50,370 bases of DNA from a virus (lineage: Duplodnaviria; Caudoviricetes), in IMG/VR virus record IMGVR_UViG_3300025096_000031, positions 1 through 50,370 of that record; one strand, given 5' to 3'. The notes beneath the pieces are model-generated. The model saw nothing but the letters and a program-made list of their open reading frames with translations, was not told the origin of the DNA and ran no database searches. The position numbers and the translations under genes are program-made. This document shows positions 1-34,667 of the stretch, in pieces. Every line of letters starts with the position of its first letter. Within the stretch, counting starts at the first letter, position 1.

Positions 1-143
1 AGATCCTAAAACATATGATCCTAATTATAAAGCACCCGTTGGATATAAGACAAGTGAGTATGCTGCTGCGGTCCGTAAATGGCGTCCTGTAAATAGAGAT
101 AATACTCTATTGGATGATTATACCCCCGAAATGGAAGAAGAGT
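1..143. repeat. Terminal direct repeat, left copy (circular assembly overlap)
   Basis: 1-143 is identical to 50228-50370 except C127 vs T50354. Confidence 0.97.
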
Positions 144-3100
144 CATCTGTTCTATTGGAGCAGATGGACAACTATGTCTATCCTACATTATTCCCCATAA
201 ACCCAGATGCTGCTACGCCTGATCCTTCTACCTGGACGGAGAAGAGTGGCAACGAGGCATTCCAGGAGGCAAAGTTAAGGGGAGAAGTCCTGGAGTTTAG
301 AAATGAACAGGAGGCTATGGCCTTTGCAGAATCTAAAGGTAGTGGAGATTGGAAGTCTGTACCAGAGGAACCAGATCCACAAATGGATCTAACAATAGGT
401 AAGCCTGTTGAATATAAATCTGCTTTTGCAGAAAAGATTTTGGCATATGATTCATTGCAAGAGAAATGGGTGGTAGATCCTAATGTAGGTTATGATGATT
501 TTCAAGCCCCATCAATGAAGACAGGATATTATGATTCTAAAGAACAGAAGTGGATGAATCCAGAGATTACCAGGAATCTGCCTGACGGATGGGACCGCAG
601 AACAAGTAATATGACTCACGATGAGCATAAAAAAGCGATTGATATATATGATAATGTTGATAAGGATATGTATATCCCGTTTAAGGAAGAAATTGTCAAT
701 ATACCCCTGCAGCCGCCTGATGTAGCAGGTAAGCAGTATGAACTCTCAAGTGCTGATGATTATAAACAATATTACTATGCAACGGCCATTAAGGCTCTTT
801 CTGAATATTATGAACTACCAGAGGTGTATTTCGATCAGGAAGATGTTGATGCCTATGCTGCAGCGAAAAGTCTTTCTGTAGGCCAGGCAACGGTTGCTGC
901 AATAAACTCAACTTTATCATCTGTATCTGTTGGTATAACAGAAAACCTATGGGATCCAACCCCTAATCAGGATGTCATAGCGAAACACAAACAAATGTTA
1001 CCATATAGTAAGGAAGGCCAGGGTTGGCCTAAAATACAACGATCCTTGTTTGCGGTAGGGCATACAGGCGCAGAGGTTTCAGCATATTTAGGACCAACAA
1101 AAGCATTAGGATTGTTGAAACTGAAAAATGTCCCTGTAGGTTATGCTGCTATGATGAGATCTGCAGCAGTTTTTGGTAGTGTAGGTGGTGGTCGGAGAGT
1201 ATTTGATCCAGATGAAAGGGAACATATGACGCTCTCAAAATGGTTGGTTGGTACCACATTGGATACTGCATTAGGATCCGCATTCCCATTTATGGGTAGA
1301 CTTGGTGGTGAGGTATTAAAGACACCTAATACATATAGGGCTTTCGCAAATTATATGGCACAAAGCACGGCATTGACGGGTGGGATGACCGCAGTAGGAT
1401 TTGCAGATGGCCTGGCTGCATATATGATGGAAAATCCTAATCAGACATTTACCGAGGCTTTTAAGACGGTTGGTGAAGGTGTTGTAGATCCAGAGATGTT
1501 ATTCCAATCGTTTATGACAATGTCTATACTGCACGGATTGGGTGCAGGACCGAGATTCTTTAAAGGTGGAAAATTGAAAGCAGAAGAGTTGGCCAAGTTA
1601 GAAAAGGTTGTCGGGTTAATGTGGGAAGATGCCCCATTTGATATAAAGAAGAAACCAAATACGGTCCCTGAAATGGTTGAATACCAGGAGAAATATAATC
1701 TATGGGTAGAGTCCAGGGGGAATAAGGCAGAATATCAGATAGAGAACGGAAAACGCATCGAGCATAATGAAAAGCGTGATGCATTAAATGAAAAAAGATT
1801 AATGGACAGGGATTATTACCAACAAGAATTAGATGCAATGGATTGGAAGGATGTGTTTGAATGGGCGAATGCAAGGCAGCAGGATTATTTCAGACATAAG
1901 GGGATGTTATATAAGGTTGAGTTAAAGTACCCCCGTCCCGTTATTAAGACATTAGAAGAGGGCGTAGCCCATTCCCAATGGATTGCGAAAGAGAAACAGA
2001 AGGTCCAAATGGAAATGGACCAATTTGAAAAGAGTGGTCGGGTTAATAAGAATTTATTGGGTGATAAAACGGTGGAGCAGTATGAGTCTGGCCTGAAAGA
2101 CAAGATGGAGAAACTCAACATTATGGAAAGTGATGTTGGGGCCGTCATTAGGAAGGCTGCTGATGTAGAATTAGATGGTGGAAAGGCCAGGAAGGGAGAT
2201 CCAGATAAGGTAGTTATCCAGGAAGATATATTAAAATCAGGTCTTGAGGATGCTGTAGAACCACCAAAGGAGATCACAAGCAAGGAAATCACAGAAGGTA
2301 AGGGCCTGGGTGATAACTCTATCACGATATTGGAATCAATGTTTAATAAGCAGGAGGCTTTTACAAATGAACAAGCGCAAACGGCATCAATTCTCGAAGG
2401 ACATATAAAAGAAAAATTTGATGCTATGGCAGAAGGTAAGCCGCAGTTATTAAAAATGATTCAAGATTCTAAACTTCCAGATGGAACAAAAAAACGGATC
2501 CTGGGCGAATGGTATGATGTTAGGGTTGAAAAAGCAGCAGGACAGAAGATGGCCGAAGATCCAGGAAGAGAAAAACAGATAGAAGGATTTGTAAAAAAAG
2601 AAGGTAAAATAACAGAAGATTCAGTTGAATGGCAGGACCATAAAAGTAAGGATGGTAAACGGACCATAGCGCAGTACACGGAGATCGGTGATAGTCCTAC
2701 GGGGAAAATATATATCCGAAGGAATCCTGATGGTACATATCGTGTGTCAAAATTTGTTGAGAAGGCAGATGGTCCTGTACTTTATTCTATGGGGGATAAG
2801 GTGCATAAGGATTTCAATAGTGCATTAAAATCGGCGGAGATGGAAGTAAGCAGCAGTAAACCAGATGTACCAAATAAGACTTGGACAGGAGATGAATACA
2901 AGCAAACACACAGACCAAGAGAAGATGGACCAACTGCAAGTGATTTAACGGGTAAAGATTCATTTGCACCAGATGATATCTATGAAAATCCACAACATTA
3001 TATAGGTGTTACTCCAAAGGATCCTGCATATAAAGAAACCATAGATGCATTCCAGGCTATGAGAAATGCAAAAGGTAATCCAGATGCAATGATTACTGTG

Positions 3101-6100
3101 TATAGAACGGGACCAAAGAATGAGTTGAATGATGGTGATTGGATAACGCTATCAGAATCATATGCCAAACAACATAGTAAGCACCCAACAGATCCAGAAC
3201 AAGATATGCCTGTTCATAAATTTGAGGTCCGTGCAGGTGATATGAAGTGGTCTGGTGAAGTGTTAGAGGAGTGGGGATATTTCCCTGATATAATAAAGCC
3301 AGGTGTAAAAAATCCTGGGGCAAGAAGGAAACTGATAAAGGAGTTTGATGCAGGGAAAAGGCAATTGTGGGAACTTACTATGGATGAGAGAGGCTTAACA
3401 CAATTAGGCGAAGATGCGCTCACAAAGAATGTGCCAGAACTATCTAAACTTGACAAAGAACATAAACAATCAGTTTTGGATGCGTTAGGACGGGGTGAAG
3501 ATGTAAGGCCAGAAGTATTAGAATCTTTCGGTATAACAAATACAGGTCGAAGTAAGCCACCTGGTGATCCCGAATCGGAACCTGTAGTCCCTGTTCAGCA
3601 GCCTGGCAAGGTGAGTAAGTTTAGGAAAGAAAAGGATCCAGAGAAGAGATATGAGATATTGCGTAAGGGTAGGGTTCAAACATTAAATGATATAGCAGGT
3701 GCAAAATTAAGCAAAACGGATAACGCAGTATTTGAAGGCACCCATAAGCAGATCACATTAGTAGAGAGCAAGGATGATCCTTCTGTTGTTTCTGTACTAT
3801 TTAATGGATCGAAGGAACCACAAAATAAGGCACAGAGAGATTGGGTGGCAAAAAATATGCCAATGAAGGGTAGAGATTTTATTCAACAAAAAATTATTGG
3901 TGAGCAGAAGGGTTGGGTATTATCAGAGAGAGGAAATAAACTATACGACCAGGGGCAAATAAATAAAGCGGTCAAATCAGGTGGTATGACACAGAGTGAG
4001 TATGATACACAGGTCAAGCCTACCAGGCCTAAATCATATCGGGGATCACAGGTGGTTGTACTTGATAAAGATCAATCAAGGGTGAAAGACACAGATCTAT
4101 ATAGGGTAAAACAAAAAGGTGGGACCTTTAAGAATATAAGTGATGGTCGCTATGTGATCTATGACAGTAAGGGTAATAAGCCATTAAATGATGCTCTTAA
4201 TAAGTTAGGTGAGGGCGGTAATGATATAGGACCATTTAAGAATAGTAAGGCTCTTGATAATATCCAACCAAGTAGAAATAATGAATTAGGTAATGATGGT
4301 GTTATTGTAGGTTATAGTCGGGGAGCAGGGGGCCACGGAGAATCAAGCACTAAAGATTACACGGCCTGGTTGAGTGATGGCCTCAATGCCGTATCTGTAG
4401 ATGCAAAATATATTGATATGTTCCAAAAGTTTTTTGGTCCAGACCTGACATATAAATTCAGCAAAACTAACCCAAATATAAGCGCAGTTACTATTTTCGA
4501 TTCCAAAGGTAAAGAAATTGGAATGGTGATGCCTATCAGGAATGATAAAGCAGATGCACCACCTAATATCCAGGGGTATTTAGGGGCCAAGCAGAGTGAA
4601 AAGGCCAATAATAATCCGTTCCTGGCAAAAGGTGGAAGTGGTAAGGGTGGTTTAGGATCTAAAAAATTTACAAGGGAAGATAAACAAGGCAGCGCTAATG
4701 ATCAATTTGAGATGGCTGACCTTAATGATCCTATCAAGAGGGCTGACATAGGTAACGACCTGATCAGGAATCTATCCTTAAATAAGGGAGAGAATGTTAG
4801 ATTTAAGAGAATAAAGAATTTTGCAAAGAATGCGGTGGCGATATTCTTTCCCAAGTCAGAAATCATTAGGGTTAACTCTTTAAAAGATGTAGACGATCTC
4901 TCTCACGAAATAGGCCATTATTTGGACATCAGTTTATTCGGAATATCAGAGTCGATGAGAGTAAAAGGACACGATCAGTTGGCTATCCAGGTAAAGAAGT
5001 GGCGGAATATGAAACAGGGTACATCAAAGGACACCAAGATGAAAGTATTGGTGAACAAGTATGGCCAGGAGGCGGTAGATAGGTGGGAGGAACGGTTAGA
5101 GGTCCAGGATGAATTGATATCCTTCCTACAGAAAAGATTTTACCCTGAATTGACAGTTAAAGAGGGAATTGCAGAATTTGTTTCTGATTATGTAACTAAT
5201 CCCAAAAATGCAGCAAAAGAGGCCCCAAAGTTTTTTGAAATGTTTGAGGGTATAATTAAGGATACACCTGTTCAGAAAGCATTAGTACAGGCCAGGGACC
5301 AGATGAAGGATTGGGATGCTCTGGATCCAAGAGTCCAGATAGAATCTACAATTCATCGTAAAGGTGAAGAAGGATGGTTAGAGGGTATTGTAAAAGAAGT
5401 GTATGGGGATGCATACTTTAACCTGGTAGACTTTACTCAACCCCTGCGTAGAGTAACGGACAATTTTATGGCAGACAATCCAGGTGCTAAAGGTCACGAA
5501 TTGGTTATCAATCAGTTTTTGTCAAACCTGGGGACAGAAGGTAAGGCACAACAATTCCTGGATAATCATCCATTTAGAATAACAAATGGGGAGATTACGA
5601 TCAGAGAAGATATTCCAGGGCTTATGAAAATACTGCAACCATTCATAGCAGGTGGAGGCACAAAGATTAAGGCATTAGAGGGCTACCTGGTTGCTCAAAG
5701 GAACATAGAATTACATACAAGATATAAGGGCCAGGCGGCTACATTGGGCCTGGAGAAGTCGCGTCAAGTTCGGGAACTGTATGAGAAGGATTTCCCAGAA
5801 TTAAAAGAAGCAGCAGAGCAAATATATGAGTACCAGGACGCCGTACTTGACTATTATAAAGATTCGGGGATGTTGAGTGAATTGGATGTTGATAATATTA
5901 GACAACTAAATAAGTTTTATATTCCGTTTAATCGTTATTTGCACGGCGAAGAAATGTATAAGGTTGGTAGCCCTGGTGGTAAGTATAGTCTTGATAAGTT
6001 TTTAAACGACAAGTCTTATCAAAAGGTTCGGGGTATTAAGGGTGCAAAAGAAGATGTGATGCCGCCATTAGAGCAGATTATAGCCAATACATTCCAATTG

Positions 6101-8272
6101 ATCAGCGCAGCAGATATGAACAGGACAAAGGTTACATTGGTCAATAATCTGTTGTTGACAGGAAGTGGCTCTGGAGTACAGAAGATACCGAATAGTAAAC
6201 TGTTTGTAACAGAACAAAAAGATCCAAATACAGGGGAAGTTATCAATAGGATCTATCAGCATAGGAAGGTCCCAATTGAAGGTCCTGGTATTATATCAAT
6301 GAGGGTGAATGGTGAAATTGGTTATTATGAAGTCACTCCAGATGTGTACAAAGCCTTTCAACATCTAAACACAACAACAAGCAAGTATCTCAAGGTGGCT
6401 GCTTTACCTTCCACAATATTAAGGAAAGGTGCCGTTGAATATAATCCACTATTTGGTTTAAGAAATGTACCCAGGGATATAGGATCATCTATATTCTATA
6501 CAAAGCACGGATATAACCCCTTCCATTTTATTACAGGGGCCAAAAGTTATAATGCTAATGATATTGTTTTTCAAAAGTTCCTGGCAAGTGGTTCAGCACA
6601 AAGTTATTTAGTTGGTATTGATAAACACCTGGATGTGGGTAAGAACAGTATGTATGCACATCCTGCGTATCAGGCAATAGATGGTTGGCGGCCTAATGGT
6701 TTAAATCCATTTAAGCAGTTCAAGAAGTTTAATTCATTTACAGAAACGGCTAATAGGGTTGGTGGATTTGCTAATGCACTCAATAAAACAGGAGATGTGT
6801 ATCTTGCAATGGCTGAAGGTAGATCTATTGCTGCAGATTATGGGTTAAGAGGTGCAAGTATGCGTAATGCAGGTGCATTATGGCCGTTCTTGAACGCCAG
6901 GATTCAGCATACAAAACAATTTGGTATTGCACACAAACCAGAAAATTTAGCCAAGACGATCACAAAGGGTGCTATATACTATGGCGCCCCAACTATAGCC
7001 AATTGGATGTATTGGCATTCATCTGAAGAGTTGGCTGATCGGTATGCTGATATGCCGACCTGGAGAAAATACGGATTCTTTAATATACCTATACCAGGCA
7101 GCCAATATACATTCAGCCTACCAACGGGCGGTTTCGGCTATGTATATGGTAAGGCCCCAGAAACATTTTTGAATTACCTGAATGATCCTAATTTTGGTTA
7201 TAGGGAAATATTGGAATCATTAGCATCAGGATGGGAACAGATTATGCCTGTAGGTGGCGGTGGAGGATTTGCAACCGAAATACTCCCTTATCCTGCACAA
7301 TTGATTGCAGAAAATGTTGTTGGCCACGATTTTTTCACAGGTCGGAGAGTTATACCCAGGGAAATGGAACACCTGGATAAGTCACTACAGTATGATGAGA
7401 ATACACCTATACAATTGAGGTGGATTGCTGATAAAATAGGAATGTCCCCAAAGAGGCTGCAGCATTTTGTTTCTTCTACATTTGCAGGGACGGGTGATTT
7501 TGCTATGGATGTTGTAGATGACCTGGCGGTGGCCACAGGCCTGTCGGACCATAGGTATGCTACCTGGACAAAGTTGTCTGATTATCCATTTATGAGGGCG
7601 TTTGTGAGTAGGATGCCTTATAGAGGTAAGCAAGGCTTAACATATCAAAAGATGTGGGAGAACCTGGATGGTTTACAAACAATAGATAATACAGTTAATA
7701 AGTGGATCTCTTTAGATAATAGGGATGCAGGTGGAGTCAAGGAAAGAATAGATAATTTAAGTAGTGGTGAGGTGCCTAAACAGTTAGATAAATATCTTTC
7801 AAAAGGTGATAATATGCAGAAGTACCAATGGATGCATACTGAATTCGATTCTGGTTACCCTGATCTACAGGGGAATCCAAAGTACACAACGAATATGAAA
7901 CAGATCAATAAATTCCACGATGTAGTGAAAATGATAGGAGATATCAATATCCTGGCTATGAAAGAAAAGGGGTATATGACGGACCAACCTATGGCCGCAG
8001 ATTTTAAAAGGTTGTGGAAGAATATGAGTAAAGAAGAACAGGCAGAATATAGGGGTAATGAAAAGTTGCTCTCTGGCCAGGATATCGTATTCCATAATAA
8101 TCTTATTATAACGGACATCACCAAGCAGTTGTACAATGCTATGGAAAGTGGTGATAATTTTGTATTGGACCAATCGTTGATGCTTACTGATGATCTTATA
8201 AAGAAATATTTAGTAGATTTTCCTTTGAAATTTGGTAAAAAGAATATCAAAGAGAAAATCCTACAGAAGTAG
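1..8272 (+). CDS. Giant polyvalent/ejection protein, 3' part (true start 49407 across the junction, ~3030 aa); ART-like, zincin-like and LPD38-like regions
   Basis: Frame is open from ATG 49407 across the repeat. Motifs: HEIGH (4904-4918) plus downstream EGIAEF; YR...GDWITLS..YA..H...EEWGY (~2900-3290); C-terminal region resembling LPD38 (YADMPTWRKYGFFNIP...HDFFTGRRVIP...SPKRLQHFV). Confidence 0.75.
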   Translation, partial: DPKTYDPNYKAPVGYKTSEYAAAVRKWRPVNRDNTLLDDYTPEMEEESSVLLEQMDNYVYPTLFPINPDAATPDPSTWTEKSGNEAFQEAKLRGEVLEFRNEQEAMAFAESKGSGDWKSVPEEPDPQMDLTIGKPVEYKSAFAEKILAYDSLQEKWVVDPNVGYDDFQAPSMKTGYYDSKEQKWMNPEITRNLPDGWDRRTSNMTHDEHKKAIDIYDNVDKDMYIPFKEEIVNIPLQPPDVAGKQYELSSADDYKQYYYATAIKALSEYYELPEVYFDQEDVDAYAAAKSLSVGQATVAAINSTLSSVSVGITENLWDPTPNQDVIAKHKQMLPYSKEGQGWPKIQRSLFAVGHTGAEVSAYLGPTKALGLLKLKNVPVGYAAMMRSAAVFGSVGGGRRVFDPDEREHMTLSKWLVGTTLDTALGSAFPFMGRLGGEVLKTPNTYRAFANYMAQSTALTGGMTAVGFADGLAAYMMENPNQTFTEAFKTVGEGVVDPEMLFQSFMTMSILHGLGAGPRFFKGGKLKAEELAKLEKVVGLMWEDAPFDIKKKPNTVPEMVEYQEKYNLWVESRGNKAEYQIENGKRIEHNEKRDALNEKRLMDRDYYQQELDAMDWKDVFEWANARQQDYFRHKGMLYKVELKYPRPVIKTLEEGVAHSQWIAKEKQKVQMEMDQFEKSGRVNKNLLGDKTVEQYESGLKDKMEKLNIMESDVGAVIRKAADVELDGGKARKGDPDKVVIQEDILKSGLEDAVEPPKEITSKEITEGKGLGDNSITILESMFNKQEAFTNEQAQTASILEGHIKEKFDAMAEGKPQLLKMIQDSKLPDGTKKRILGEWYDVRVEKAAGQKMAEDPGREKQIEGFVKKEGKITEDSVEWQDHKSKDGKRTIAQYTEIGDSPTGKIYIRRNPDGTYRVSKFVEKADGPVLYSMGDKVHKDFNSALKSAEMEVSSSKPDVPNKTWTGDEYKQTHRPREDGPTASDLTGKDSFAPDDIYENPQHYIGVTPKDPAYKETIDAFQAMRNAKGNPDAMITVYRTGPKNELNDGDWITLSESYAKQHSKHPTDPEQDMPVHKFEVRAGDMKWSGEVLEEWGYFPDIIKPGVKNPGARRKLIKEFDAGKRQLWELTMDERGLTQLGEDALTKNVPELSKLDKEHKQSVLDALGRGEDVRPEVLESFGITNTGRSKPPGDPESEPVVPVQQPGKVSKFRKEKDPEKRYEILRKGRVQTLNDIAGAKLSKTDNAVFEGTHKQITLVESKDDPSVVSVLFNGSKEPQNKAQRDWVAKNMPMKGRDFIQQKIIGEQKGWVLSERGNKLYDQGQINKAVKSGGMTQSEYDTQVKPTRPKSYRGSQVVVLDKDQSRVKDTDLYRVKQKGGTFKNISDGRYVIYDSKGNKPLNDALNKLGEGGNDIGPFKNSKALDNIQPSRNNELGNDGVIVGYSRGAGGHGESSTKDYTAWLSDGLNAVSVDAKYIDMFQKFFGPDLTYKFSKTNPNISAVTIFDSKGKEIGMVMPIRNDKADAPPNIQGYLGAKQSEKANNNPFLAKGGSGKGGLGSKKFTREDKQGSANDQFEMADLNDPIKRADIGNDLIRNLSLNKGENVRFKRIKNFAKNAVAIFFPKSEIIRVNSLKDVDDLSHEIGHYLDISLFGISESMRVKGHDQLAIQVKKWRNMKQGTSKDTKMKVLVNKYGQEAVDRWEERLEVQDELISFLQKRFYPELTVKEGIAEFVSDYVTNPKNAAKEAPKFFEMFEGIIKDTPVQKALVQARDQMKDWDALDPRVQIESTIHRKGEEGWLEGIVKEVYGDAYFNLVDFTQPLRRVTDNFMADNPGAKGHELVINQFLSNLGTEGKAQQFLDNHPFRITNGEITIREDIPGLMKILQPFIAGGGTKIKALEGYLVAQRNIELHTRYKGQAATLGLEKSRQVRELYEKDFPELKEAAEQIYEYQDAVLDYYKDSGMLSELDVDNIRQLNKFYIPFNRYLHGEEMYKVGSPGGKYSLDKFLNDKSYQKVRGIKGAKEDVMPPLEQIIANTFQLISAADMNRTKVTLVNNLLLTGSGSGVQKIPNSKLFVTEQKDPNTGEVINRIYQHRKVPIEGPGIISMRVNGEIGYYEVTPDVYKAFQHLNTTTSKYLKVAALPSTILRKGAVEYNPLFGLRNVPRDIGSSIFYTKHGYNPFHFITGAKSYNANDIVFQKFLASGSAQSYLVGIDKHLDVGKNSMYAHPAYQAIDGWRPNGLNPFKQFKKFNSFTETANRVGGFANALNKTGDVYLAMAEGRSIAADYGLRGASMRNAGALWPFLNARIQHTKQFGIAHKPENLAKTITKGAIYYGAPTIANWMYWHSSEELADRYADMPTWRKYGFFNIPIPGSQYTFSLPTGGFGYVYGKAPETFLNYLNDPNFGYREILESLASGWEQIMPVGGGGGFATEILPYPAQLIAENVVGHDFFTGRRVIPREMEHLDKSLQYDENTPIQLRWIADKIGMSPKRLQHFVSSTFAGTGDFAMDVVDDLAVATGLSDHRYATWTKLSDYPFMRAFVSRMPYRGKQGLTYQKMWENLDGLQTIDNTVNKWISLDNRDAGGVKERIDNLSSGEVPKQLDKYLSKGDNMQKYQWMHTEFDSGYPDLQGNPKYTTNMKQINKFHDVVKMIGDINILAMKEKGYMTDQPMAADFKRLWKNMSKEEQAEYRGNEKLLSGQDIVFHNNLIITDITKQLYNAMESGDNFVLDQSLMLTDDLIKKYLVDFPLKFGKKNIKEKILQK

Positions 8273-28445: not shown

Positions 28446-29924
28446 ATGGCACAACCTTATAGTTATGGATCAGGAACCGCTACCCAATTCACCACAGGCG
28501 AACAACGCCAGGTACTTGAGTTAGGCGAAAAGATTCATATGTTTAACCCAGATGTCACGCCCATATTTACTGTTATGGGTAGATTATCTACATCAGTAAC
28601 CCCCGTTCCAATTTTTGAATGGATGGAAGATGAATATTTCATCCGTCCTGATGTAAAATTGATCACAGGCGCAGCAACGGTCCAGGACCGTGGTGGCTCC
28701 GCAGGTGATAACGATACGGGATTCATCATCAGAATGAACCGACAAGCGCAATTTGAGGCGTTTGAAAAAGGTGCGCTTTACACTATCTCTGGTTTAGGGA
28801 CAGGAGAAACGCAGTTTGAATCCGCAAATACTGATGTTGAACTAATGTGTGTTGCTCTTGGTCAAGAGTGTCAAGCAGGGACAGTTGGTGGCGCAGTTGC
28901 CGCATCTGAATTAGATGTTGCATTTGTCCATTCCGACGGAACATTACCTGCTTTTCGTTATGACAAGAACGGCACAACAGTTGCAGGTTTTGCATATACT
29001 GCAACATCAACAATCACATTCACATATGTCGGGAATGTCGGAGAATGCTCCGATCTTGATCAGCCTGGTCATTCTGCTACGCAGACTAACCTAACTGACA
29101 ATGAAACGGCAACTGTGTATCGATCCAGAGTCGGATGGCGTGAAGGCGCAAACATTGGCGAAATGACATCCAAAAAGGTTCGTAGACTATCGAACTGTAC
29201 GCAGATCTTTAGAGAGCCTTACTCAATCACAGGCACACAGAATGCTGCCAAAATGTATGGTGGATCTGAAATGTCACGCTTACAAGCACGGAAATTGAAC
29301 AAAATCAAGATGGATCTGGAATATGCTATCTTGACGAATGGCGCAAAATCCCTTGATGCAACGGCAGAAAATCCCCAAAGAACAATGGCAGGACTTGGTG
29401 TCGGAGGAACGGCAGGAGTTATTCAATCCTTAAACGCAGATGTGAATGCTGAATTGAAGATGACCGAAACATATTCATCTTCTGCAGTTGGTGGATTGGG
29501 CGAAATGGACGATGTCCTGGAAAAAGTATTCCAGGATAGTTTGTCTGGTTCTATGAAGAAAACCGCATTTTGCTCAAATCGTTGGCTGAAGAAATTGGTA
29601 GGTCTGGCTCGTACAGACTCAAATACCAGTATCAATGCTGAAATGGGATCTAACGCTACCGCAGGGTTGCGTGTTACAAAATACTTTGGGCCTATCGGTG
29701 AAATGGACTTTGTGGTCCATCCGTTGCTCAACAGTACATTGGATGCGTATGCGGTTGTTCTTGATTTTGCAAACATTGCTTGGCGCCCATTGGCTACAAG
29801 AGATATGCAGTTGAGATCTAATGTGATCCAGGATGGTCGTGACGGTCAAACTAATGAGTGGTTGATCGAAGCAGGAATGGAAATTCGGAACGAACAAACA
29901 CACGCTATCTTAAAATTGGTATAA
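28446..29924 (+). CDS. Major capsid protein (HK97 fold, DUF5309/SU10-like)
   Basis: TPIF, FEWMED, NCTQIFREPYSITGT, DLEYAIL.G, RTMAG, YFGPIG, EWLIEAGME; strong RBS. Confidence 0.88.
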   Translation: MAQPYSYGSGTATQFTTGEQRQVLELGEKIHMFNPDVTPIFTVMGRLSTSVTPVPIFEWMEDEYFIRPDVKLITGAATVQDRGGSAGDNDTGFIIRMNRQAQFEAFEKGALYTISGLGTGETQFESANTDVELMCVALGQECQAGTVGGAVAASELDVAFVHSDGTLPAFRYDKNGTTVAGFAYTATSTITFTYVGNVGECSDLDQPGHSATQTNLTDNETATVYRSRVGWREGANIGEMTSKKVRRLSNCTQIFREPYSITGTQNAAKMYGGSEMSRLQARKLNKIKMDLEYAILTNGAKSLDATAENPQRTMAGLGVGGTAGVIQSLNADVNAELKMTETYSSSAVGGLGEMDDVLEKVFQDSLSGSMKKTAFCSNRWLKKLVGLARTDSNTSINAEMGSNATAGLRVTKYFGPIGEMDFVVHPLLNSTLDAYAVVLDFANIAWRPLATRDMQLRSNVIQDGRDGQTNEWLIEAGMEIRNEQTHAILKLV

Positions 29925-29998: not shown

Positions 29999-30904
29999 AT
30001 GAGATATCAAGAATTATACGAAATGGTCGATATGGGTATGCTCCGTGCAAATGTCAATTATCCCGTATCGGACAATCTTAAAGAATTTTTAGTAACACAG
30101 GCGGTTGATAAGATCGGGGAAACTGTTGTTCTAAAGAAAAAGACTCTATCCCCATCTGTAGTAGGGACGACGGCTATATTGGATGCCGACGATATGACAT
30201 CAAAAGTTTATAAGGTAGAGGCAGGAGATAAGAATCTTCCCTTTATCAGCGAAGAAACAACAAACCCAAATACCGACACAACAACAATAACAAACAATGC
30301 CTGGTATGTAAAACAAAACAGAGAGTCTGGGACCATATCTTCGTTGGCGTCTACAGATGCAAGTCCAAGTTCAGTAACTTTCACAGGCTCTATAAACCCT
30401 AATGTAGATCAGGTGGTAGGTAGTAGAATATTTATAAGTGAAGTAGGTGGCATTGTAAAGGCAGGTGAAAAACACCCTTTAAACGGCCAAACTTGGCGTA
30501 TAACGGCCGTAAGTGGCGAAGACCTAACCTTTACCGCTAAAGACAATACGCACACGAATGGGGGCTATTCTGCGTATACTGCAGGAACAGGGGTATATGA
30601 AGAGAGAACATATACAATCCATTTTTTAAAGGCCCCTGAAGGGACCGTAAAAGTTTATTATTATGCAAAGCCCACACCAATGGTCAGTTTGGCAAGTGAA
30701 GTGGACCTACCAAGTGAATTGGTTTCTGCGGTGGTCCATTTAGTTATAGCCAGGTTAATGTCGATTGACGGCCAGATGCAAATGGGATCTGGGCATCGTG
30801 GTATAGCAAAACAGGTAATTGAAGAATGGATCCAAGCCAGGAGCAGAAGAGAACAGTTTCCAGACATTGTTCCACCACCAATGACTAACTTTATAGATAA
30901 GTAG
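29999..30904 (+). CDS. Head-tail adaptor-like virion protein with inserted beta domain
   Basis: Position after the capsid gene; C-terminal VYYYAKP...DLPSEL..AVV pattern. Confidence 0.55.
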   Translation: MRYQELYEMVDMGMLRANVNYPVSDNLKEFLVTQAVDKIGETVVLKKKTLSPSVVGTTAILDADDMTSKVYKVEAGDKNLPFISEETTNPNTDTTTITNNAWYVKQNRESGTISSLASTDASPSSVTFTGSINPNVDQVVGSRIFISEVGGIVKAGEKHPLNGQTWRITAVSGEDLTFTAKDNTHTNGGYSAYTAGTGVYEERTYTIHFLKAPEGTVKVYYYAKPTPMVSLASEVDLPSELVSAVVHLVIARLMSIDGQMQMGSGHRGIAKQVIEEWIQARSRREQFPDIVPPPMTNFIDK

Positions 30905-30912
30905 AGGATATT

Positions 30913-33900
30913 ATGGCAACATTAGGCACAAGAGTTGAAGATCTTATCGGAGCATTCTCCGATACTACGGCAAAGGATAGCGCATTAACAGATGCAGCCC
31001 AGGAAATCTTAAATGTACTTCCAGATGAGTGTCTGTGGTTAGTGATAGATGAAAGCGCAGATATAGTATCAAACGGGTATTCAGTAGACACCTGTAAAGT
31101 TATGGCAGTAACAAGGGATGGTGAGTTTTGTAAGTTGATGCCCCTGGCCTACGAAAATAGAGTTATCAATGTCCCAGAAAGTTTATTTGCCCCGTCCACA
31201 AATATGCCCGTATACATTCTGAAGGAAAATAAGATATCAGTATATCCTACAGGATTTGGTCAGTTTAAGGTCCAAAAGGTAAATTATCCCACAATATTAA
31301 GTACAGATACCAATATAGGTAAGATTGAAAAGTCTGGTGTGACAGTAGATGTATCTGCGTTGTTTACTAAAACATCTCACGGCTTATCGGTTGGTGATAG
31401 TGTAACATTAGAAAGTTGGACCAAAGATGTGGGTGGAGGTGCATTCCCTGAATTGGAAGGGATGACCACACAGGTGGCTACGGTCCCGTTAACATCTACA
31501 TTTACATTAGAAGGAGTTACGGCAGCGTCCGAGGCCGCAACGGGAACCATTGTATCTGGGACGATGTTCCCAAAAGAATTAGAACATATTGTTGTCCTGG
31601 GGGCAGCATTGAAAGGCCGAATCTGGCAATTAGTAGAAAAAAGGGCAAGTTTACCTGCAGCGCCTACAGTAGTTACTCTATCATCTCCCCCATCGTTGGT
31701 GGCCATCGACACTAATCTGTCGTCCCCCATATCATCCACATATACGGCCCCAACTGCTCCGACCAAACCAGGCGCTGCAAATTTTACATACACACCGCCA
31801 AGTAAACCAACGCCGCCACAAGGACCATCGTTCACATATACAAGTCCATCAGCACCAACACCGCCTGGCACACCATCATTCACATATACTGCGCCTTCAC
31901 CACCAACGGCACCAGGCGCACCAAGTTTTACATTTTCACCACCGAATGCACCCATAGCCCCAGGGGCGCCACAGTTTTCATATACAAGTCCATCGTCAGT
32001 ACCGACGGCGCCTGGCGCACCATCGTTCGTGTATTCACCACCAACGGCACCAACACCGCCAGGAACACCTACATTTACATACAATGCGCCAAGCCTACCA
32101 TCGGCGATTGTACAACCTAATTTCACATATACAAGCCCTACACCATTTCCAACGGCACCAGGCACACCATTTTTTCAGTATACAAGTCCTACAATAACGC
32201 TTGATACTGCACCTGTTATTACAGACCTGGATCTGTCAGCGATAACTGTCCCAGATCCCCCTGCCGTATCAATATCATATACTGCTGCTACAGGTGGTGA
32301 TGCATCTAATACAGATGCAACGACACAGGCCACGGGACCAACTGCAGTAGGATCTATCCCTATTGTGGCAGATGCAACATATGGATCCTTACCTACGGTC
32401 CCAACTTATAATACTCCGCCTGTTACTACAAACTTTGCGGATGCAGAAACATACATCTCAATAAATGAAGATATTGAACTTGCCCAGGCGAATATAACAA
32501 AGAACCAGGCCGTACTACAGGAATATCAATTAACGATATCAAACAATTTGAATAAGTTTAATGCAGAATCACAGGAATACCAGGCAGGTATAAAAAAACT
32601 TGATCGTGAATTTGAAGACGCAATAAAACAGAATATAGCGGATGCAAATAACGAAGTTAACAGGATCCTGAAACAAGCAGAGATTGATGCAGCGCAAACG
32701 CAACAAGATACAAAAGCAGCAATAGAAGTGGATATTCGCAATAAAGCACAGGACCAAACATTAGATATACATAACAAAGCCCAGGCCCAGGCATTAGCAA
32801 TAACGAATGCCGCTAAAGATGTAGAGGCAGAGATTGAAACTTCAAGACAAAAGGTGCAGGTATTCCAGGCAGAAGTACAAAGATATCAACAGGAAGTTGT
32901 TACTGCAGTACAGGTATACCAGGTAAATGAGATTCAAAAAGAAATTGCGCTATGGCAGGGAGAGCAAACACATAAGATCCAAAAGTACACCGCCGATATA
33001 AATAATGCCCAGGCCGCTTATAGATCATCATTTGATGAATATGCTGCAGAAAATAGTAAGTATGCTGCTGAAGTCCAGGGATGGGGATTAAAGGTTCAGG
33101 ATGCCCAGGCGTTATATAGGGCATCAGTTGATGAATATTCAGCCGATAGTGGTAGGTATCAAGCAGAGATCCAGAAGTATTCACAAGAATTAGCCAACGC
33201 ACAGGCGCAATACAGGGAAGATGTCGATGAGTACACGGCATCAAATCAGAAGTATTCTACGGAAGTCCAAGCATATGCGACAGAGATAAACGATTCCCAG
33301 GCAAGTTACAAAGCGGATGTTGACATATATAATGCCGAAACCGCTAAATATTCATCAGAAATCCAGGCGTATTCTGCAGAAATAGGCAATGCCCAAGCAG
33401 CGTATAAAGAAGCGGTTGATGAATACACGGCATCAAACGGTAAATATTCCGCAGAAATTCAAGCATATTCCATTGAAATAGGTAAAGCACAGGCGGAGTA
33501 TAAAGAAGCGGTTGACGAGTATGCTGCAGAAAGCCAGAAGTATTCATCAGAGATCCAGGCCTATTCCATTCAGGTCCAAAACGCACAAGCATCTTATAAG
33601 CAATCTGTAGATGAATATGCATCAAGTAGTGGCAAATATGCTGCAGAAATCCAATCATTCAATGCCGAATTGTCGGATGCACAAGCAGTATACAGAGAGG
33701 AAGTAGACGAATATACTGCAGTAATAAATAAATTTGCATCTGAAACACAATTATATAATTCCGAATTACAGAACGCCCAGGCGGAATATAAAGTATTCTT
33801 TGACGAAAAAACATCAGATAATCAATTGTATGGAGTAGAGTTACAGGCCTATTCTACAGAATTGCAGAATGCGGTCCAGGAATACAAGGTCGCTTTAGAC

Positions 33901-34176
33901 ACATTCTCAAATGAGTTACAGACATTATCATCTATAAATCAAAGTATAATAGCAAATAATAATTCAACAATCCAACATTGGCAAACAGAGAATAGCCTTG
34001 ATGTTACTAATTATTCGGCCCAGGTACAGGAGTACCAATCGGAAGTTGGCAGGTACCAGGGAGAACACGGGTTAATGATACAAGAGCAACAGGCAATCCA
34101 ACAACAGTACCAGGTAGCCTTACAGGGTTATATGTCTAAATATCAACCAACGCCAGGGGTTCAGGGGAATGCTTGA
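30913..34176 (+). CDS. Adaptor/ring-like virion protein with Pro-rich and helical repeat stalk
   Basis: Adaptor-like N-terminus (PVY....NKI.VYP; FPKELEH.VVLGAA), a HGL..GD.V insert, 16-aa Pro repeats and 32-aa helical repeats. Confidence 0.65.
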   Translation: MATLGTRVEDLIGAFSDTTAKDSALTDAAQEILNVLPDECLWLVIDESADIVSNGYSVDTCKVMAVTRDGEFCKLMPLAYENRVINVPESLFAPSTNMPVYILKENKISVYPTGFGQFKVQKVNYPTILSTDTNIGKIEKSGVTVDVSALFTKTSHGLSVGDSVTLESWTKDVGGGAFPELEGMTTQVATVPLTSTFTLEGVTAASEAATGTIVSGTMFPKELEHIVVLGAALKGRIWQLVEKRASLPAAPTVVTLSSPPSLVAIDTNLSSPISSTYTAPTAPTKPGAANFTYTPPSKPTPPQGPSFTYTSPSAPTPPGTPSFTYTAPSPPTAPGAPSFTFSPPNAPIAPGAPQFSYTSPSSVPTAPGAPSFVYSPPTAPTPPGTPTFTYNAPSLPSAIVQPNFTYTSPTPFPTAPGTPFFQYTSPTITLDTAPVITDLDLSAITVPDPPAVSISYTAATGGDASNTDATTQATGPTAVGSIPIVADATYGSLPTVPTYNTPPVTTNFADAETYISINEDIELAQANITKNQAVLQEYQLTISNNLNKFNAESQEYQAGIKKLDREFEDAIKQNIADANNEVNRILKQAEIDAAQTQQDTKAAIEVDIRNKAQDQTLDIHNKAQAQALAITNAAKDVEAEIETSRQKVQVFQAEVQRYQQEVVTAVQVYQVNEIQKEIALWQGEQTHKIQKYTADINNAQAAYRSSFDEYAAENSKYAAEVQGWGLKVQDAQALYRASVDEYSADSGRYQAEIQKYSQELANAQAQYREDVDEYTASNQKYSTEVQAYATEINDSQASYKADVDIYNAETAKYSSEIQAYSAEIGNAQAAYKEAVDEYTASNGKYSAEIQAYSIEIGKAQAEYKEAVDEYAAESQKYSSEIQAYSIQVQNAQASYKQSVDEYASSSGKYAAEIQSFNAELSDAQAVYREEVDEYTAVINKFASETQLYNSELQNAQAEYKVFFDEKTSDNQLYGVELQAYSTELQNAVQEYKVALDTFSNELQTLSSINQSIIANNNSTIQHWQTENSLDVTNYSAQVQEYQSEVGRYQGEHGLMIQEQQAIQQQYQVALQGYMSKYQPTPGVQGNA
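31735..32190 (+). repeat. Nine complete (plus one partial) Pro-rich 16-17-aa coding repeats, F-x-Y-x-x-P-x-x-P-x-x-P-G-x-P
   Basis: Translation of 30913-34176. Confidence 0.9.
33007..33915 (+). repeat. Nine complete (plus one partial) 32-aa (96-bp) helical coding repeats, AQAxYxxxVDEYxAxxxKYxxEIQAYSxEIxN
   Basis: Unit starts at 33007 + n*96 up to 33871. Confidence 0.9.
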
Positions 34177-34667
34177 TGAGGAAGAGTTTAATAAGAAGTG
34201 ATAAAATTGAGATCAGACTATCCCAGGTTAGCGGATATGGTGTATTCGCAAAGGAAGATATAAAAGAAGGGACCATATTAGAAGAATGCCGTCTAATATT
34301 TATTCCGTTTGATCATAAAGTTGAAACATTAGGTAGGTACCTATGGCATTGGGATTCAAACGATCCTATGAGATACTGTGCTTTGCCAATAGGTTATGGT
34401 AGTTTATATAATTCATCTGAAGACGAAGAGCCAAGTGTGCGTGTTGAGGCAGATGAAGAAGAACAAATCTTGATATATATTGCAAATAAGAGTCTAAAGA
34501 AGAACGAAGAATTAACAATGAAATATAAGTTTTATAAGGACTATAAATATTATACAACCATAGAACCGCAAAAGAGTGAGAATATAGATCTTCTCGTAAA
34601 TGGATATGGTGGAGATGATAGATCAGAATTGATATCAAGAATATTCCCTGGAGTCCCAATTGCCTAA
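34173..34667 (+). CDS. SET-domain protein (lysine methyltransferase fold)
   Basis: S...GYGVFAKEDIKEG, GYGSLYNSS (canonical NHS is NSS here), A.K.L...EELTMKY. Confidence 0.85.
   Translation: MMRKSLIRSDKIEIRLSQVSGYGVFAKEDIKEGTILEECRLIFIPFDHKVETLGRYLWHWDSNDPMRYCALPIGYGSLYNSSEDEEPSVRVEADEEEQILIYIANKSLKKNEELTMKYKFYKDYKYYTTIEPQKSENIDLLVNGYGGDDRSELISRIFPGVPIA

Follow-up and report, generated by a model that had tools for sequence, protein, structure and literature searches.

How two very different repeats, one rich in proline and the other in tyrosine and alanine, come to lie within the same viral protein, and whether they are independent elements or two limbs of one structure, is the question raised by the open reading frame (ORF) at 30913..34176 (+) of the virus record IMGVR_UViG_3300025096_000031 (Duplodnaviria; Caudoviricetes). 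This complete viral record of 50,370 bp, taken at its full length, is the window analysed here, and the ORF, hereafter the query, encodes 1087 amino acids (aa) and contains the stretch 31735-33915 (aa 275-1001) in which both repeats are found. An earlier interpretation of the same DNA made without database searches (the sequence-only reading) had proposed that this adaptor-like protein folds back into a single-chain rod over 40 nm long, made of an α-helix and a polyproline II (PPII) strand, and that it projects from the virion neck. We have carried out an analysis of the protein, of its family and of its genomic surroundings. In our view the gene codes for a head-to-tail adaptor, its source being a marine, uncultured short-tailed phage of SU10-like type, and an adaptor bearing, at the neck, an antiparallel hairpin in which a proline-rich strand runs alongside a long helix is probably the best explanation of the observations reported below.

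Two repeat arrays with corresponding units

The proline-rich array (31735..32223, +; aa 275-437) consists of nine units of 16-17 residues, starting at aa 275, 291, 307, 323, 339, 355, 372, 388 and 404 and amounting to 146 residues in total (aa 275-420), which are followed by a degenerate tenth unit (aa 421-437). The unit pattern is F-T-Y-T-x-P-S-x-P-T-x-P-G-x-P-x, with prolines at positions 6, 9, 12 and 15. After a gap of ~270 residues comes the helical array (32974..33933, +; aa 688-1007), with nine units of 32 residues (aa 688-975, 288 residues) and again a degenerate tenth (aa 976-1007). In each helical unit an aromatic residue, nearly always tyrosine and otherwise phenylalanine or tryptophan, occupies positions 5, 16, 23 and 30, establishing a spacing of 7, 7, 7, 11 along the entire array. 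Both periodicities stand clearly above chance, as evaluated from 500 shuffles of each segment: the best self-identity of the proline segment is 0.40 (lag 16) against 0.215±0.016 in the shuffles (maximum 0.29), and that of the helical segment is 0.51 (lag 64) and 0.49 (lag 32) against 0.135±0.009 (maximum 0.165). The repeat content described by the sequence-only reading is therefore confirmed, and the unit lengths that it gave, ~5.0 nm for the proline units and 4.8 nm for the helical ones, follow from standard rises. At the nucleotide level Tandem Repeats Finder picks up little more than two copies in each array, namely 2.1 of period 48 (31824-31923) and 2.3 of period 96 (33346-33570), and the mean pairwise identity between units is 0.59 in both arrays for DNA, and 0.52 (proline units) and 0.46 (helical units) for protein. 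Judging from these identities, the repeat units are old and have diverged at the DNA level.

We have also analysed how the aromatic residues would be distributed around a helix. At 32/9 residues per turn the resultant of their directions amounts to 0.94, and it falls to 0.20 at 3.5 and to 0.04 at 3.6 residues per turn; the tyrosine stripe is flanked by isoleucine or valine (unit positions 2, 9 and 20) and by alanine (position 12). Prolines at i, i+3, i+6 and i+9 together with a single tyrosine stripe make up a sequence pattern that fits PPII geometry and proline-aromatic packing. The arrays are in fact part only of longer regions, which are a Pro/Ser/Thr-rich region delimited by composition (31648..32472, +; aa 246-520, 275 residues, 21% proline) and a proline-free helical region (32473..34146, +; aa 521-1078, 558 residues), recognised by its lack of proline and by the length coupling described below. 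The ratio between the lengths of the two regions is 2.03: the arrays do match, as had been proposed, but the match covers the whole of the 275 and 558 residues and not the arrays alone.

A large family of uncultured phage proteins

An initial homologue search returned 11 relatives, a profile search 2154 cluster representatives at E<=0.001 (716 of them at E<=1e-30), and a scan of IMG/VR 473 relatives; the phages from which the family derives are mostly marine, uncultured and short-tailed. The query aligns to the family alignment A3 by hhalign with a probability of 100% and E 1.5e-77 over 645 columns. Family members share the same layout, comprising an N-domain of ~155-265 residues which ends in a conserved helix, a proline-rich region devoid of regular structure, a conserved acidic turn, proline-free helices and a conserved C-terminus, the turn being among the most conserved parts. 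Searches of a phage GenBank collection with the query and with the relatives P0049 and P0122 gave no real homologue, and Pfam and PHROGs searches of the query yielded sub-threshold noise only (TPPII_Ig-like, phrog_28496).

The particular unit sizes of the query are rare within this family. A metagenome scan for relatives with units of 16 and 32 residues led to L082, which is 83% identical to the query and has the same unit numbers, to L083 (1874-3963; 62% identity), which has 14 proline units against 10 in the query and whose contig ends before the helical array, and to the fragment L084. An IMG/VR single-protein search for more such relatives found none, and a protein search with the helical array alone recovered distant relatives only. 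Among the sequences recovered, this unit type is carried only by the query, L082, the fragment L083, and P0001 and L084 with about one unit each.

The lengths of strand and helix are coupled

Three conserved elements allow the two limbs to be delimited in the family. The first is the last helix of the N-domain (31567..31647, +; aa 219-245 of the query), whose conserved motif starts with FPxE and which is recognised by a hidden Markov model (HMM), the N-helix HMM; it corresponds to helix 221-244 in an AlphaFold2 model of the query and to residues 142-167 of the relative P0087. The second is the turn or junction (32374..32556, +; aa 488-548), with invariant P497, P502, D520 and E522 and a helix start at about aa 521, whose HMM matches 156 of 159 family sequences. 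The third is the C-terminal segment (33910..34173, +; aa 1000-1087), whose HMM matches 155 of the 159. The strand was taken to begin where the last N-domain helix ends and to stop where the junction HMM places the start of the long helix, and the helical limb from that start to the C-terminus minus the proline-containing tail. A change-point in proline density was rejected as a boundary, since in many proteins it put the N-domain limit in the wrong place, and the N-helix HMM was used instead; an N-domain HMM derived from alignment A1 was also rejected for this purpose, being misaligned in distant members.

The 159 sequences comprise 158 fetched ones and the query, the best 150 of the 2154 profile matches having been used. 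Completeness (an initial methionine, an N-domain match within 12 residues, a full junction and a C-terminal match) was verified for 130, and 112 of these also had an N-helix match that scored 15 bits or more and was consistent in order. Within these 112 representatives strands vary from 93 to 429 residues and helices from 189 to 785 residues, and the two lengths are correlated (Pearson r 0.86) with a median helix/strand ratio of 1.97. The ratio lies between 1.8 and 2.2 in 82 proteins, is below 1.8 in 30 and exceeds 2.2 in none, the maximum being 2.16. When helix lengths were permuted 2000 times, a mean of 17.8 and at most 32 proteins fell within the band, against the 82 observed. N-domain length does not correlate with helix length (r=−0.04). 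A second set, consisting of 65 complete ORFs obtained from 270 candidate frames in 80 IMG/VR loci, evidences the same relation, with r=0.96, a slope of 1.92, an intercept of 0.3 and 51 of the 65 within the band; after collapsing identical length pairs (36 remaining), r is 0.97 and the Theil-Sen slope 1.98. A sharp ceiling of the ratio with outliers on the lower side only is what would be expected if the strand must at least span the helix.

Periods, copy numbers and paired insertions

The coupling extends to the internal repeats. Significant periodicity in both limbs was found in 29 of the 88 proteins with strands of at least 150 residues, and the ratio between helix and strand periods is 1.8-2.2 in 23 of the 29, with a median of 1.96. 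The strand/helix periods fall into the classes 16/32 (the query), 41-45/83-87, 53-55/98-110, 102-107/200-210 and 115/227. Array analysis was carried out on 25 of the 29 proteins, leaving out those with ratios of 0.49, 0.77, 1.34 and 1.43 (two of them truncated), and spans could be obtained in both limbs for 21 of the 25. In these 21 proteins the copy numbers of the two limbs correlate with r=0.97. Also, when the edges of the arrays are measured from the turn, an antiparallel register gives r=0.89 and 0.94, whereas a parallel register gives r=0.12.

The most direct observations come from comparisons between close relatives. The query and P0001 are 68% identical in their best BLASTP local alignment and differ by exactly two large insertions or deletions (indels), one of 130 residues (aa 293-422) and one of 256 residues (aa 722-977), which correspond to eight units of 16.25 residues and eight units of 32 residues. 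Counted from the helix start, the first lies 99-228 residues ahead and the second 201-456 residues beyond; using 3.08 and 1.5 Å per residue, this places them at 305-702 Å and 302-684 Å from the turn. P0002 and P0001 differ likewise by an indel pair of 71 and 143 residues, placed at 259-474 Å and 227-440 Å from the turn. In P0023 (aa 170-711) the helix carries a duplication of 166 residues with identical stretches and the strand contains near-identical units of 41 residues, which by its sequence is a very recent co-expansion of both limbs. In this protein the duplicated units differ between the limbs (2×83 versus 41), which suggests that the matching of lengths is a product of selection and not of a mechanical link between the limbs.

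The ratios that are independent of any boundary assignment, 1.94-2.05, imply an axial rise of ~2.9-3.1 Å per strand residue, which, as calculated from sequence lengths, is the value of polyproline II and not that of a fully stretched β-strand. The coupled lengths, periods, registers and indels thus point to an antiparallel fold-back at ~3.0 Å per strand residue. The sequence-only reading had set out in advance that proline units and helical units should co-vary in number among homologues; this is borne out across the family by lengths at ~2:1, periods at ~1:2, the correlation of copy numbers and the mirrored indels.

The core of a family member corresponds to a podophage adaptor

In order to identify the part of the protein that lies outside the two limbs, we have modelled P0087, which at 466 residues is the shortest complete family member, with AlphaFold2 from a 79-sequence alignment, obtaining a mean predicted local distance difference test (pLDDT) score of 83. 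Its best matches in the Protein Data Bank (PDB) are all podophage head-to-tail adaptors, namely those of KHP30 (Z 10.8), cyanophage A4 (Z 10.1), Pa223 and GP4 (both Z 9.8), followed by SU10 gp11 (Z 8.5-8.7) and T7 gp11 (Z 7.9-8.2). The corresponding alignments span the model from residue 1 to 458-466, with ~173 residues aligned. In BFVD the matches are uncultured-virus relatives and then ordinary adaptors, some of them named 'tail tubular protein A'. Since the adaptor alignments cover both ends of the protein, the N-domain and the extreme C-terminus sit together, and in this model they jointly constitute a podophage adaptor fold, with its helix bundle, β dock domain and C-terminal element. An adaptor fold assembled from both ends means in turn that the proline-rich strand and the helix are one insertion, which must return to its start.

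Profile searches agree with this assignment for two family members. The Pfam family PF24175 (SU10_adaptor), whose cut-off is 27 bits, is passed by P0122 (31 bits) and by the family ORF in the genome behind L007 (28 bits), although it has no match at E<=0.1 in the query. In the genomes behind L036, L034 and L049 PF24175 has no match anywhere, in those behind L007 and L075 it gives outside the family ORF weak matches in short ORFs only, and in the L036 genome none of the nine ORFs scanned around the gene matches an adaptor, which leaves the family ORF as the sole candidate there. The query is counted as an adaptor from the fold of the family member and from its match to the family profile, and the earlier designation 'adaptor-like' is therefore well founded.

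Proposed fold and alternative explanations

Taking these results together, the chain would leave the adaptor core after the last N-domain helix (~aa 245), run outward as an extended PPII-like strand (aa 246-520), turn at the conserved acidic motif (~aa 518-522) and return as an α-helix (aa 521-1078), the end of which would rejoin the adaptor core. The strand would lie antiparallel along the helix, at a residue ratio of about 1:2. Each 16-residue proline unit, with four prolines on one PPII face and an F-x-Y anchor, would face one 32-residue helical unit, whose four tyrosines form one narrow stripe. With limbs spanning equal distances, length would change only by paired expansions placed as mirror images. 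Side-by-side packing, PPII geometry and tyrosine-proline contacts are what we infer from these data. The model of P0087 is consistent with a strand lying on helices, as its strand (aa 191-250) has pLDDT values of 65-86 without regular secondary structure and residues 201-359 align as one bundle-like body.

In the query the 32-residue units are devoid of a break motif, and the arrays would accordingly give an unbroken, thin ribbon of ~45 nm, the contour of the whole hairpin reaching up to ~84 nm. As to function, by analogy with known phages the proteins may act as neck-borne fibres in twelve copies per virion, either as twelve single rods or as fewer bundles, reaching the host surface or carrying a protein at the tip. 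Adaptors form twelve-fold rings below the portal, and in SU10 each long tail fibre, the product of the next gene, docks on two of them (PMC9509320). In the window that next-gene position is taken by an adaptor with a putative rod of its own, for which reason we favour neck-borne fibres. We give about even chances to a more far-reaching interpretation, in which the neck fibres of the family are single-chain helix/PPII hairpins that arose independently as the first viral counterpart of the AgI/II stalk of streptococcal adhesins and work as a self-checking ruler, having been expanded repeatedly by compensated insertions in unit pairs of 16/32, ~41/83, ~54/105 and ~115/227 residues.

A number of observations weigh against this fold or restrict how far it can be taken. 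The AlphaFold2 model of the query, obtained from an alignment of 12 sequences, has a pLDDT of 41 and a predicted template modelling (pTM) score of 0.29 and serves for secondary structure only. A Mantel test for mirrored genealogies of the units in the query gave r=−0.03 for protein (p=0.54) and r=0.16 for DNA (p=0.22), and the one-to-one test of unit counts inside the 16/32 type rests on very few sequences. The 30 of 112 representatives with ratios below 1.8 reach as low as 0.66; from their sequences they look to be partly truncated proteins and partly proteins with extra, probably compact, strand segments. The p-values of the correlations overstate independence, the sequences being related. 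No AgI/II structure appears among the listed Foldseek/VIA matches of P0087, in lists that a single domain can fill. The high conservation of the turn argues against the tip as a variable receptor binder. Finally, a second adaptor-like gene lies directly upstream (29999..30904, +; 301 aa), and the portal-bound adaptor could be the query protein, the 301-residue protein, or both in alternation. To these adds the shape of the P0087 model, which is discussed below with the explanation that it favours.

The rival that accounts best for the data is an oligomeric coiled-coil fibre, in which the helices of two, three or more neighbouring adaptors form the core and the proline-rich strands lie outside or in the grooves, possibly on the helix of a neighbour; length matching would be kept, with a core made of helix-helix contacts instead of one-to-one helix/PPII pairs. 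The coupling of lengths, periods and indels fits this arrangement equally well, the aromatic seam is heptad-like with one stutter per 32 residues and has isoleucine or valine at positions 2, 9 and 20 beside the tyrosines, and adaptors are dodecameric, with two of them per fibre in what is described for SU10 (PMC9509320). However, the seam is mostly tyrosine and alanine and not leucine and isoleucine, which is unusual for the core of a coiled coil, and we consider this explanation rather unlikely.

More doubtful is a compact folded ribbon or bundle, in which the limbs fold at unit boundaries into a strand-decorated knob or a collar around the neck, the 2:1 relation then reflecting unit-by-unit pairing in a bundle and not the length of a fibre. 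The P0087 model speaks for it: its helical limb has breaks at aa 308-310 and 393-396, which fall on a Ser/Asp-rich motif conserved where units meet, the first two helices pack as a hairpin, residues 255-360 being superposable on helical hairpins with a root-mean-square deviation of 2.7-2.9 Å, and residues 201-359 match a four-helix bundle (Z 9.1, 154 residues aligned). As modelled, P0087 is thus a folded ribbon or bundle and not one straight rod, and the common 41/83 relatives may likewise have a folded ribbon in place of a straight one. On the other hand, monomer AlphaFold predictions often fold long helices back on themselves, the helices of the 32-residue array, free of the break motif, run unbroken over 113-120 residues in the low-confidence query model, and the ratio ceiling at ~2.1-2.2 is predicted by a taut strand on a full-length helix while a bundle needs none; altogether we regard this explanation as improbable. 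It follows that the single rod of over 40 nm put forward by the sequence-only reading finds support at best for the unbroken 16/32 arrays of the query, the P0087 model not being straight.

That a proline-rich flexible spacer and an independent coiled coil are unrelated, and have similar unit counts by coincidence, is hardly credible. Phage fibre proteins do often contain elements of both kinds, and the family profile retrieved from the PDB, by sequence, only low-complexity, apolipoprotein-like helical matches (E 2e-7 and weaker). The sequence statistics nevertheless already contradict this explanation, since lengths, periods, copy numbers and positions are coupled throughout the family, indel pairs are placed as mirror images and 82 proteins lie in the band against 17.8 under permutation; a boundary artefact is countered by the boundary-free indel and period ratios.

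The antiparallel strand/helix hairpin on an adaptor thus continues to be the explanation that we prefer, and what is new in it is an adaptor with an unprecedented insertion, adaptors and α/PPII stalks being each of a known kind.

Comparison with known adaptors, stalks and fibres

The family shares with podophage adaptors such as T7 gp11 ('tail tubular protein A') and SU10 gp11 the fold formed by the N-domain and the C-terminal end of P0087, and the query shares with them the position after an SU10-type capsid gene. They differ in size: known adaptors in the match lists have ~180-260 residues, whereas this family carries, after the last N-domain helix and before the C-terminal end, an inserted strand and helix amounting to 150 to >1200 residues. 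Unlike known adaptors, the query has in addition an extra insertion of 81 residues in the N-domain, and a second adaptor-like gene upstream.

The AgI/II stalk (SpaP; PDB 3iox, A3VP1) likewise has repetitive limbs, an Ala/Tyr-rich helix and a PPII strand at ~2:1, with the difference that the packing is solved there and inferred here. In the antigen I/II (AgI/II) adhesins, among them SpaP, SspB and BspA, repeats are 82 and 39 residues long, a Tyr/Ala composition is typical of the helix face, and a cell-wall anchor is a defining feature of these proteins. The order of the elements in AgI/II is A (helix), V (globular) and P (PPII), whereas in the query it is reversed, with strand, short turn and helix, the globular V domain being replaced by a short conserved turn. 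Also, AgI/II is a cell-wall-anchored adhesin while the query is a virion adaptor without an anchor, and its units have 16/32 residues, those of its relatives having 41/83, 54/105 or 115/227. Pfam detects no AgI/II family in the query (E<=0.1) or in ten relatives (E<=0.01), and a PDB sequence search found no AgI/II chain at E<=1. By its sequence, then, the query protein is an analogue of AgI/II and not a homologue; it plausibly works, by analogy, as the AgI/II stalk does. In the latter, exposed proline side chains contact helix aromatics, and these contacts are accompanied by hydrogen bonds to the PPII backbone and by bridging water (PMC3707005).

Among phage fibres, the closest comparisons are structures attached to the same region of the virion. 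Fibritin whiskers of T4 sit on the neck, and both these and SU10 gp12/gp13 are separate trimers docked on the adaptor or the neck, whereas here the rod would be within the adaptor chain. Homology of the query to the SU10 gp12/gp13 or T4 fibritin fibres was not detected in PHROGs or in the phage GenBank collection. The likeness to the SU10 long tail fibre gp12/gp13 is one of position, as the query gene sits at the place of gp12, after the adaptor gene, in the gene order given for SU10 (PMC9509320), and with this fibre and T4 fibritin the query would also share a role at the neck. PDB structure searches returned compact adaptors, and nothing with a comparable rod among the matches listed; in the main texts of the literature searched, we found no phage adaptor with polyproline or with a comparable fibre. 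This agrees with the statement of the sequence-only reading that such a fibre had not been described in phages.

Remaining parts of the gene and genome context

The whole gene (30913..34176, +) is thus annotated, from the ORF, its homologues and the hhalign match to the family, as an adaptor protein with a putative inserted strand/helix hairpin. It begins with the first part of the adaptor core (30913..31323, +; aa 1-137), made up of N-terminal helices and β elements and aligning to the family N-domain. There follows a lineage-specific insertion in the N-domain (31324..31566, +; aa 138-218), probably a small β domain, which stays unaligned in the family-profile comparison and is absent from most of the family. 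Pfam matched neither of the two insertions in the N-domain; in the Atlas 19% of the proteins in the nearest cluster bear E1_FCCH, a possible lead for the insertion at aa 138-218. In the low-confidence AlphaFold2 model of the query, the Pro/Ser/Thr-rich region that would be the outgoing limb has no regular secondary structure, and the proline-free region that would be the returning limb is helical at 521-1076 as assigned by DSSP; the C-terminal segment would return to the adaptor core.

Two other features of these regions were noted. In the sub-family formed by L018, L057, L065, P0120 and P0145 the helix/strand ratio is 1.4-1.7 and an acidic, Trp/Phe-rich segment directly precedes the turn; from its sequence the segment is probably compact, and perhaps a small tip domain. 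Opposite the proline-rich array of the query there is an antisense ORF (31377-32165, −) of 262 aa, Gly/Val-rich, which is most likely a shadow of the proline codons and not a gene.

Upstream of the query the gene order is terminase, P22-type portal, a scaffold-sized ORF, the major capsid protein (28446..29924, +; PF17236 SU10_MCP, E 2.2e-42) and the 301-aa ORF. As judged from its Pfam match, the capsid gene identifies these surroundings as an SU10-like head-tail module, and L036 and L007 have a matching order without the 301-aa ORF. The latter matches PF24175 at 25.4-26 bits, below the cut-off of 27, over profile positions 76-168, and has an inserted segment of its own. It is kept directly upstream only in L082 and L083, being absent from the other fetched loci, and a BLASTP comparison of the query N-domain with it found no similarity.

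Downstream, and still within the structural module, an ORF of 164 aa (34173-34667, +) begins over the stop of the adaptor gene and carries a SET domain (PF00856, E 1e-9). A BLASTP comparison found no similarity between it and the L036 ORF at the same place; that a lysine methyltransferase-like ORF adjoins a lysine-bearing repeat protein is curious. At the 5' end of the record a giant ORF (2-8272, +), open at that end and of at least 2756 aa, contains a ParB C-terminal-like stretch (phrog_2579), phrog_9854 and LPD38 (PF18857), and from these matches looks like a large polyvalent protein.

Implications

The most interesting results, which are also directly testable, are the 2:1 law that holds across the family and the indels that compensate each other at mirrored positions. 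If the hairpin interpretation is true, the rare α/PPII hybrid fibre would have evolved independently a second time, and would occur in the phage adaptor, a class viewed as a compact ring of ~200-residue subunits. The rods could serve in host capture, as spacers or sensors, or in carrying a protein at the conserved tip.

The family also offers an unusually clean natural experiment on how two repeat arrays far apart in a gene evolve together. Sequence alone is enough to reveal the 2:1 law, its sharp upper bound and the paired indels; these would allow the fibres of thousands of uncultured phages to be predicted in length, and they suggest a simple design rule for rods of programmable length. A block of 'hypothetical proteins' from marine viromes would thereby become annotatable as adaptors with built-in fibres.

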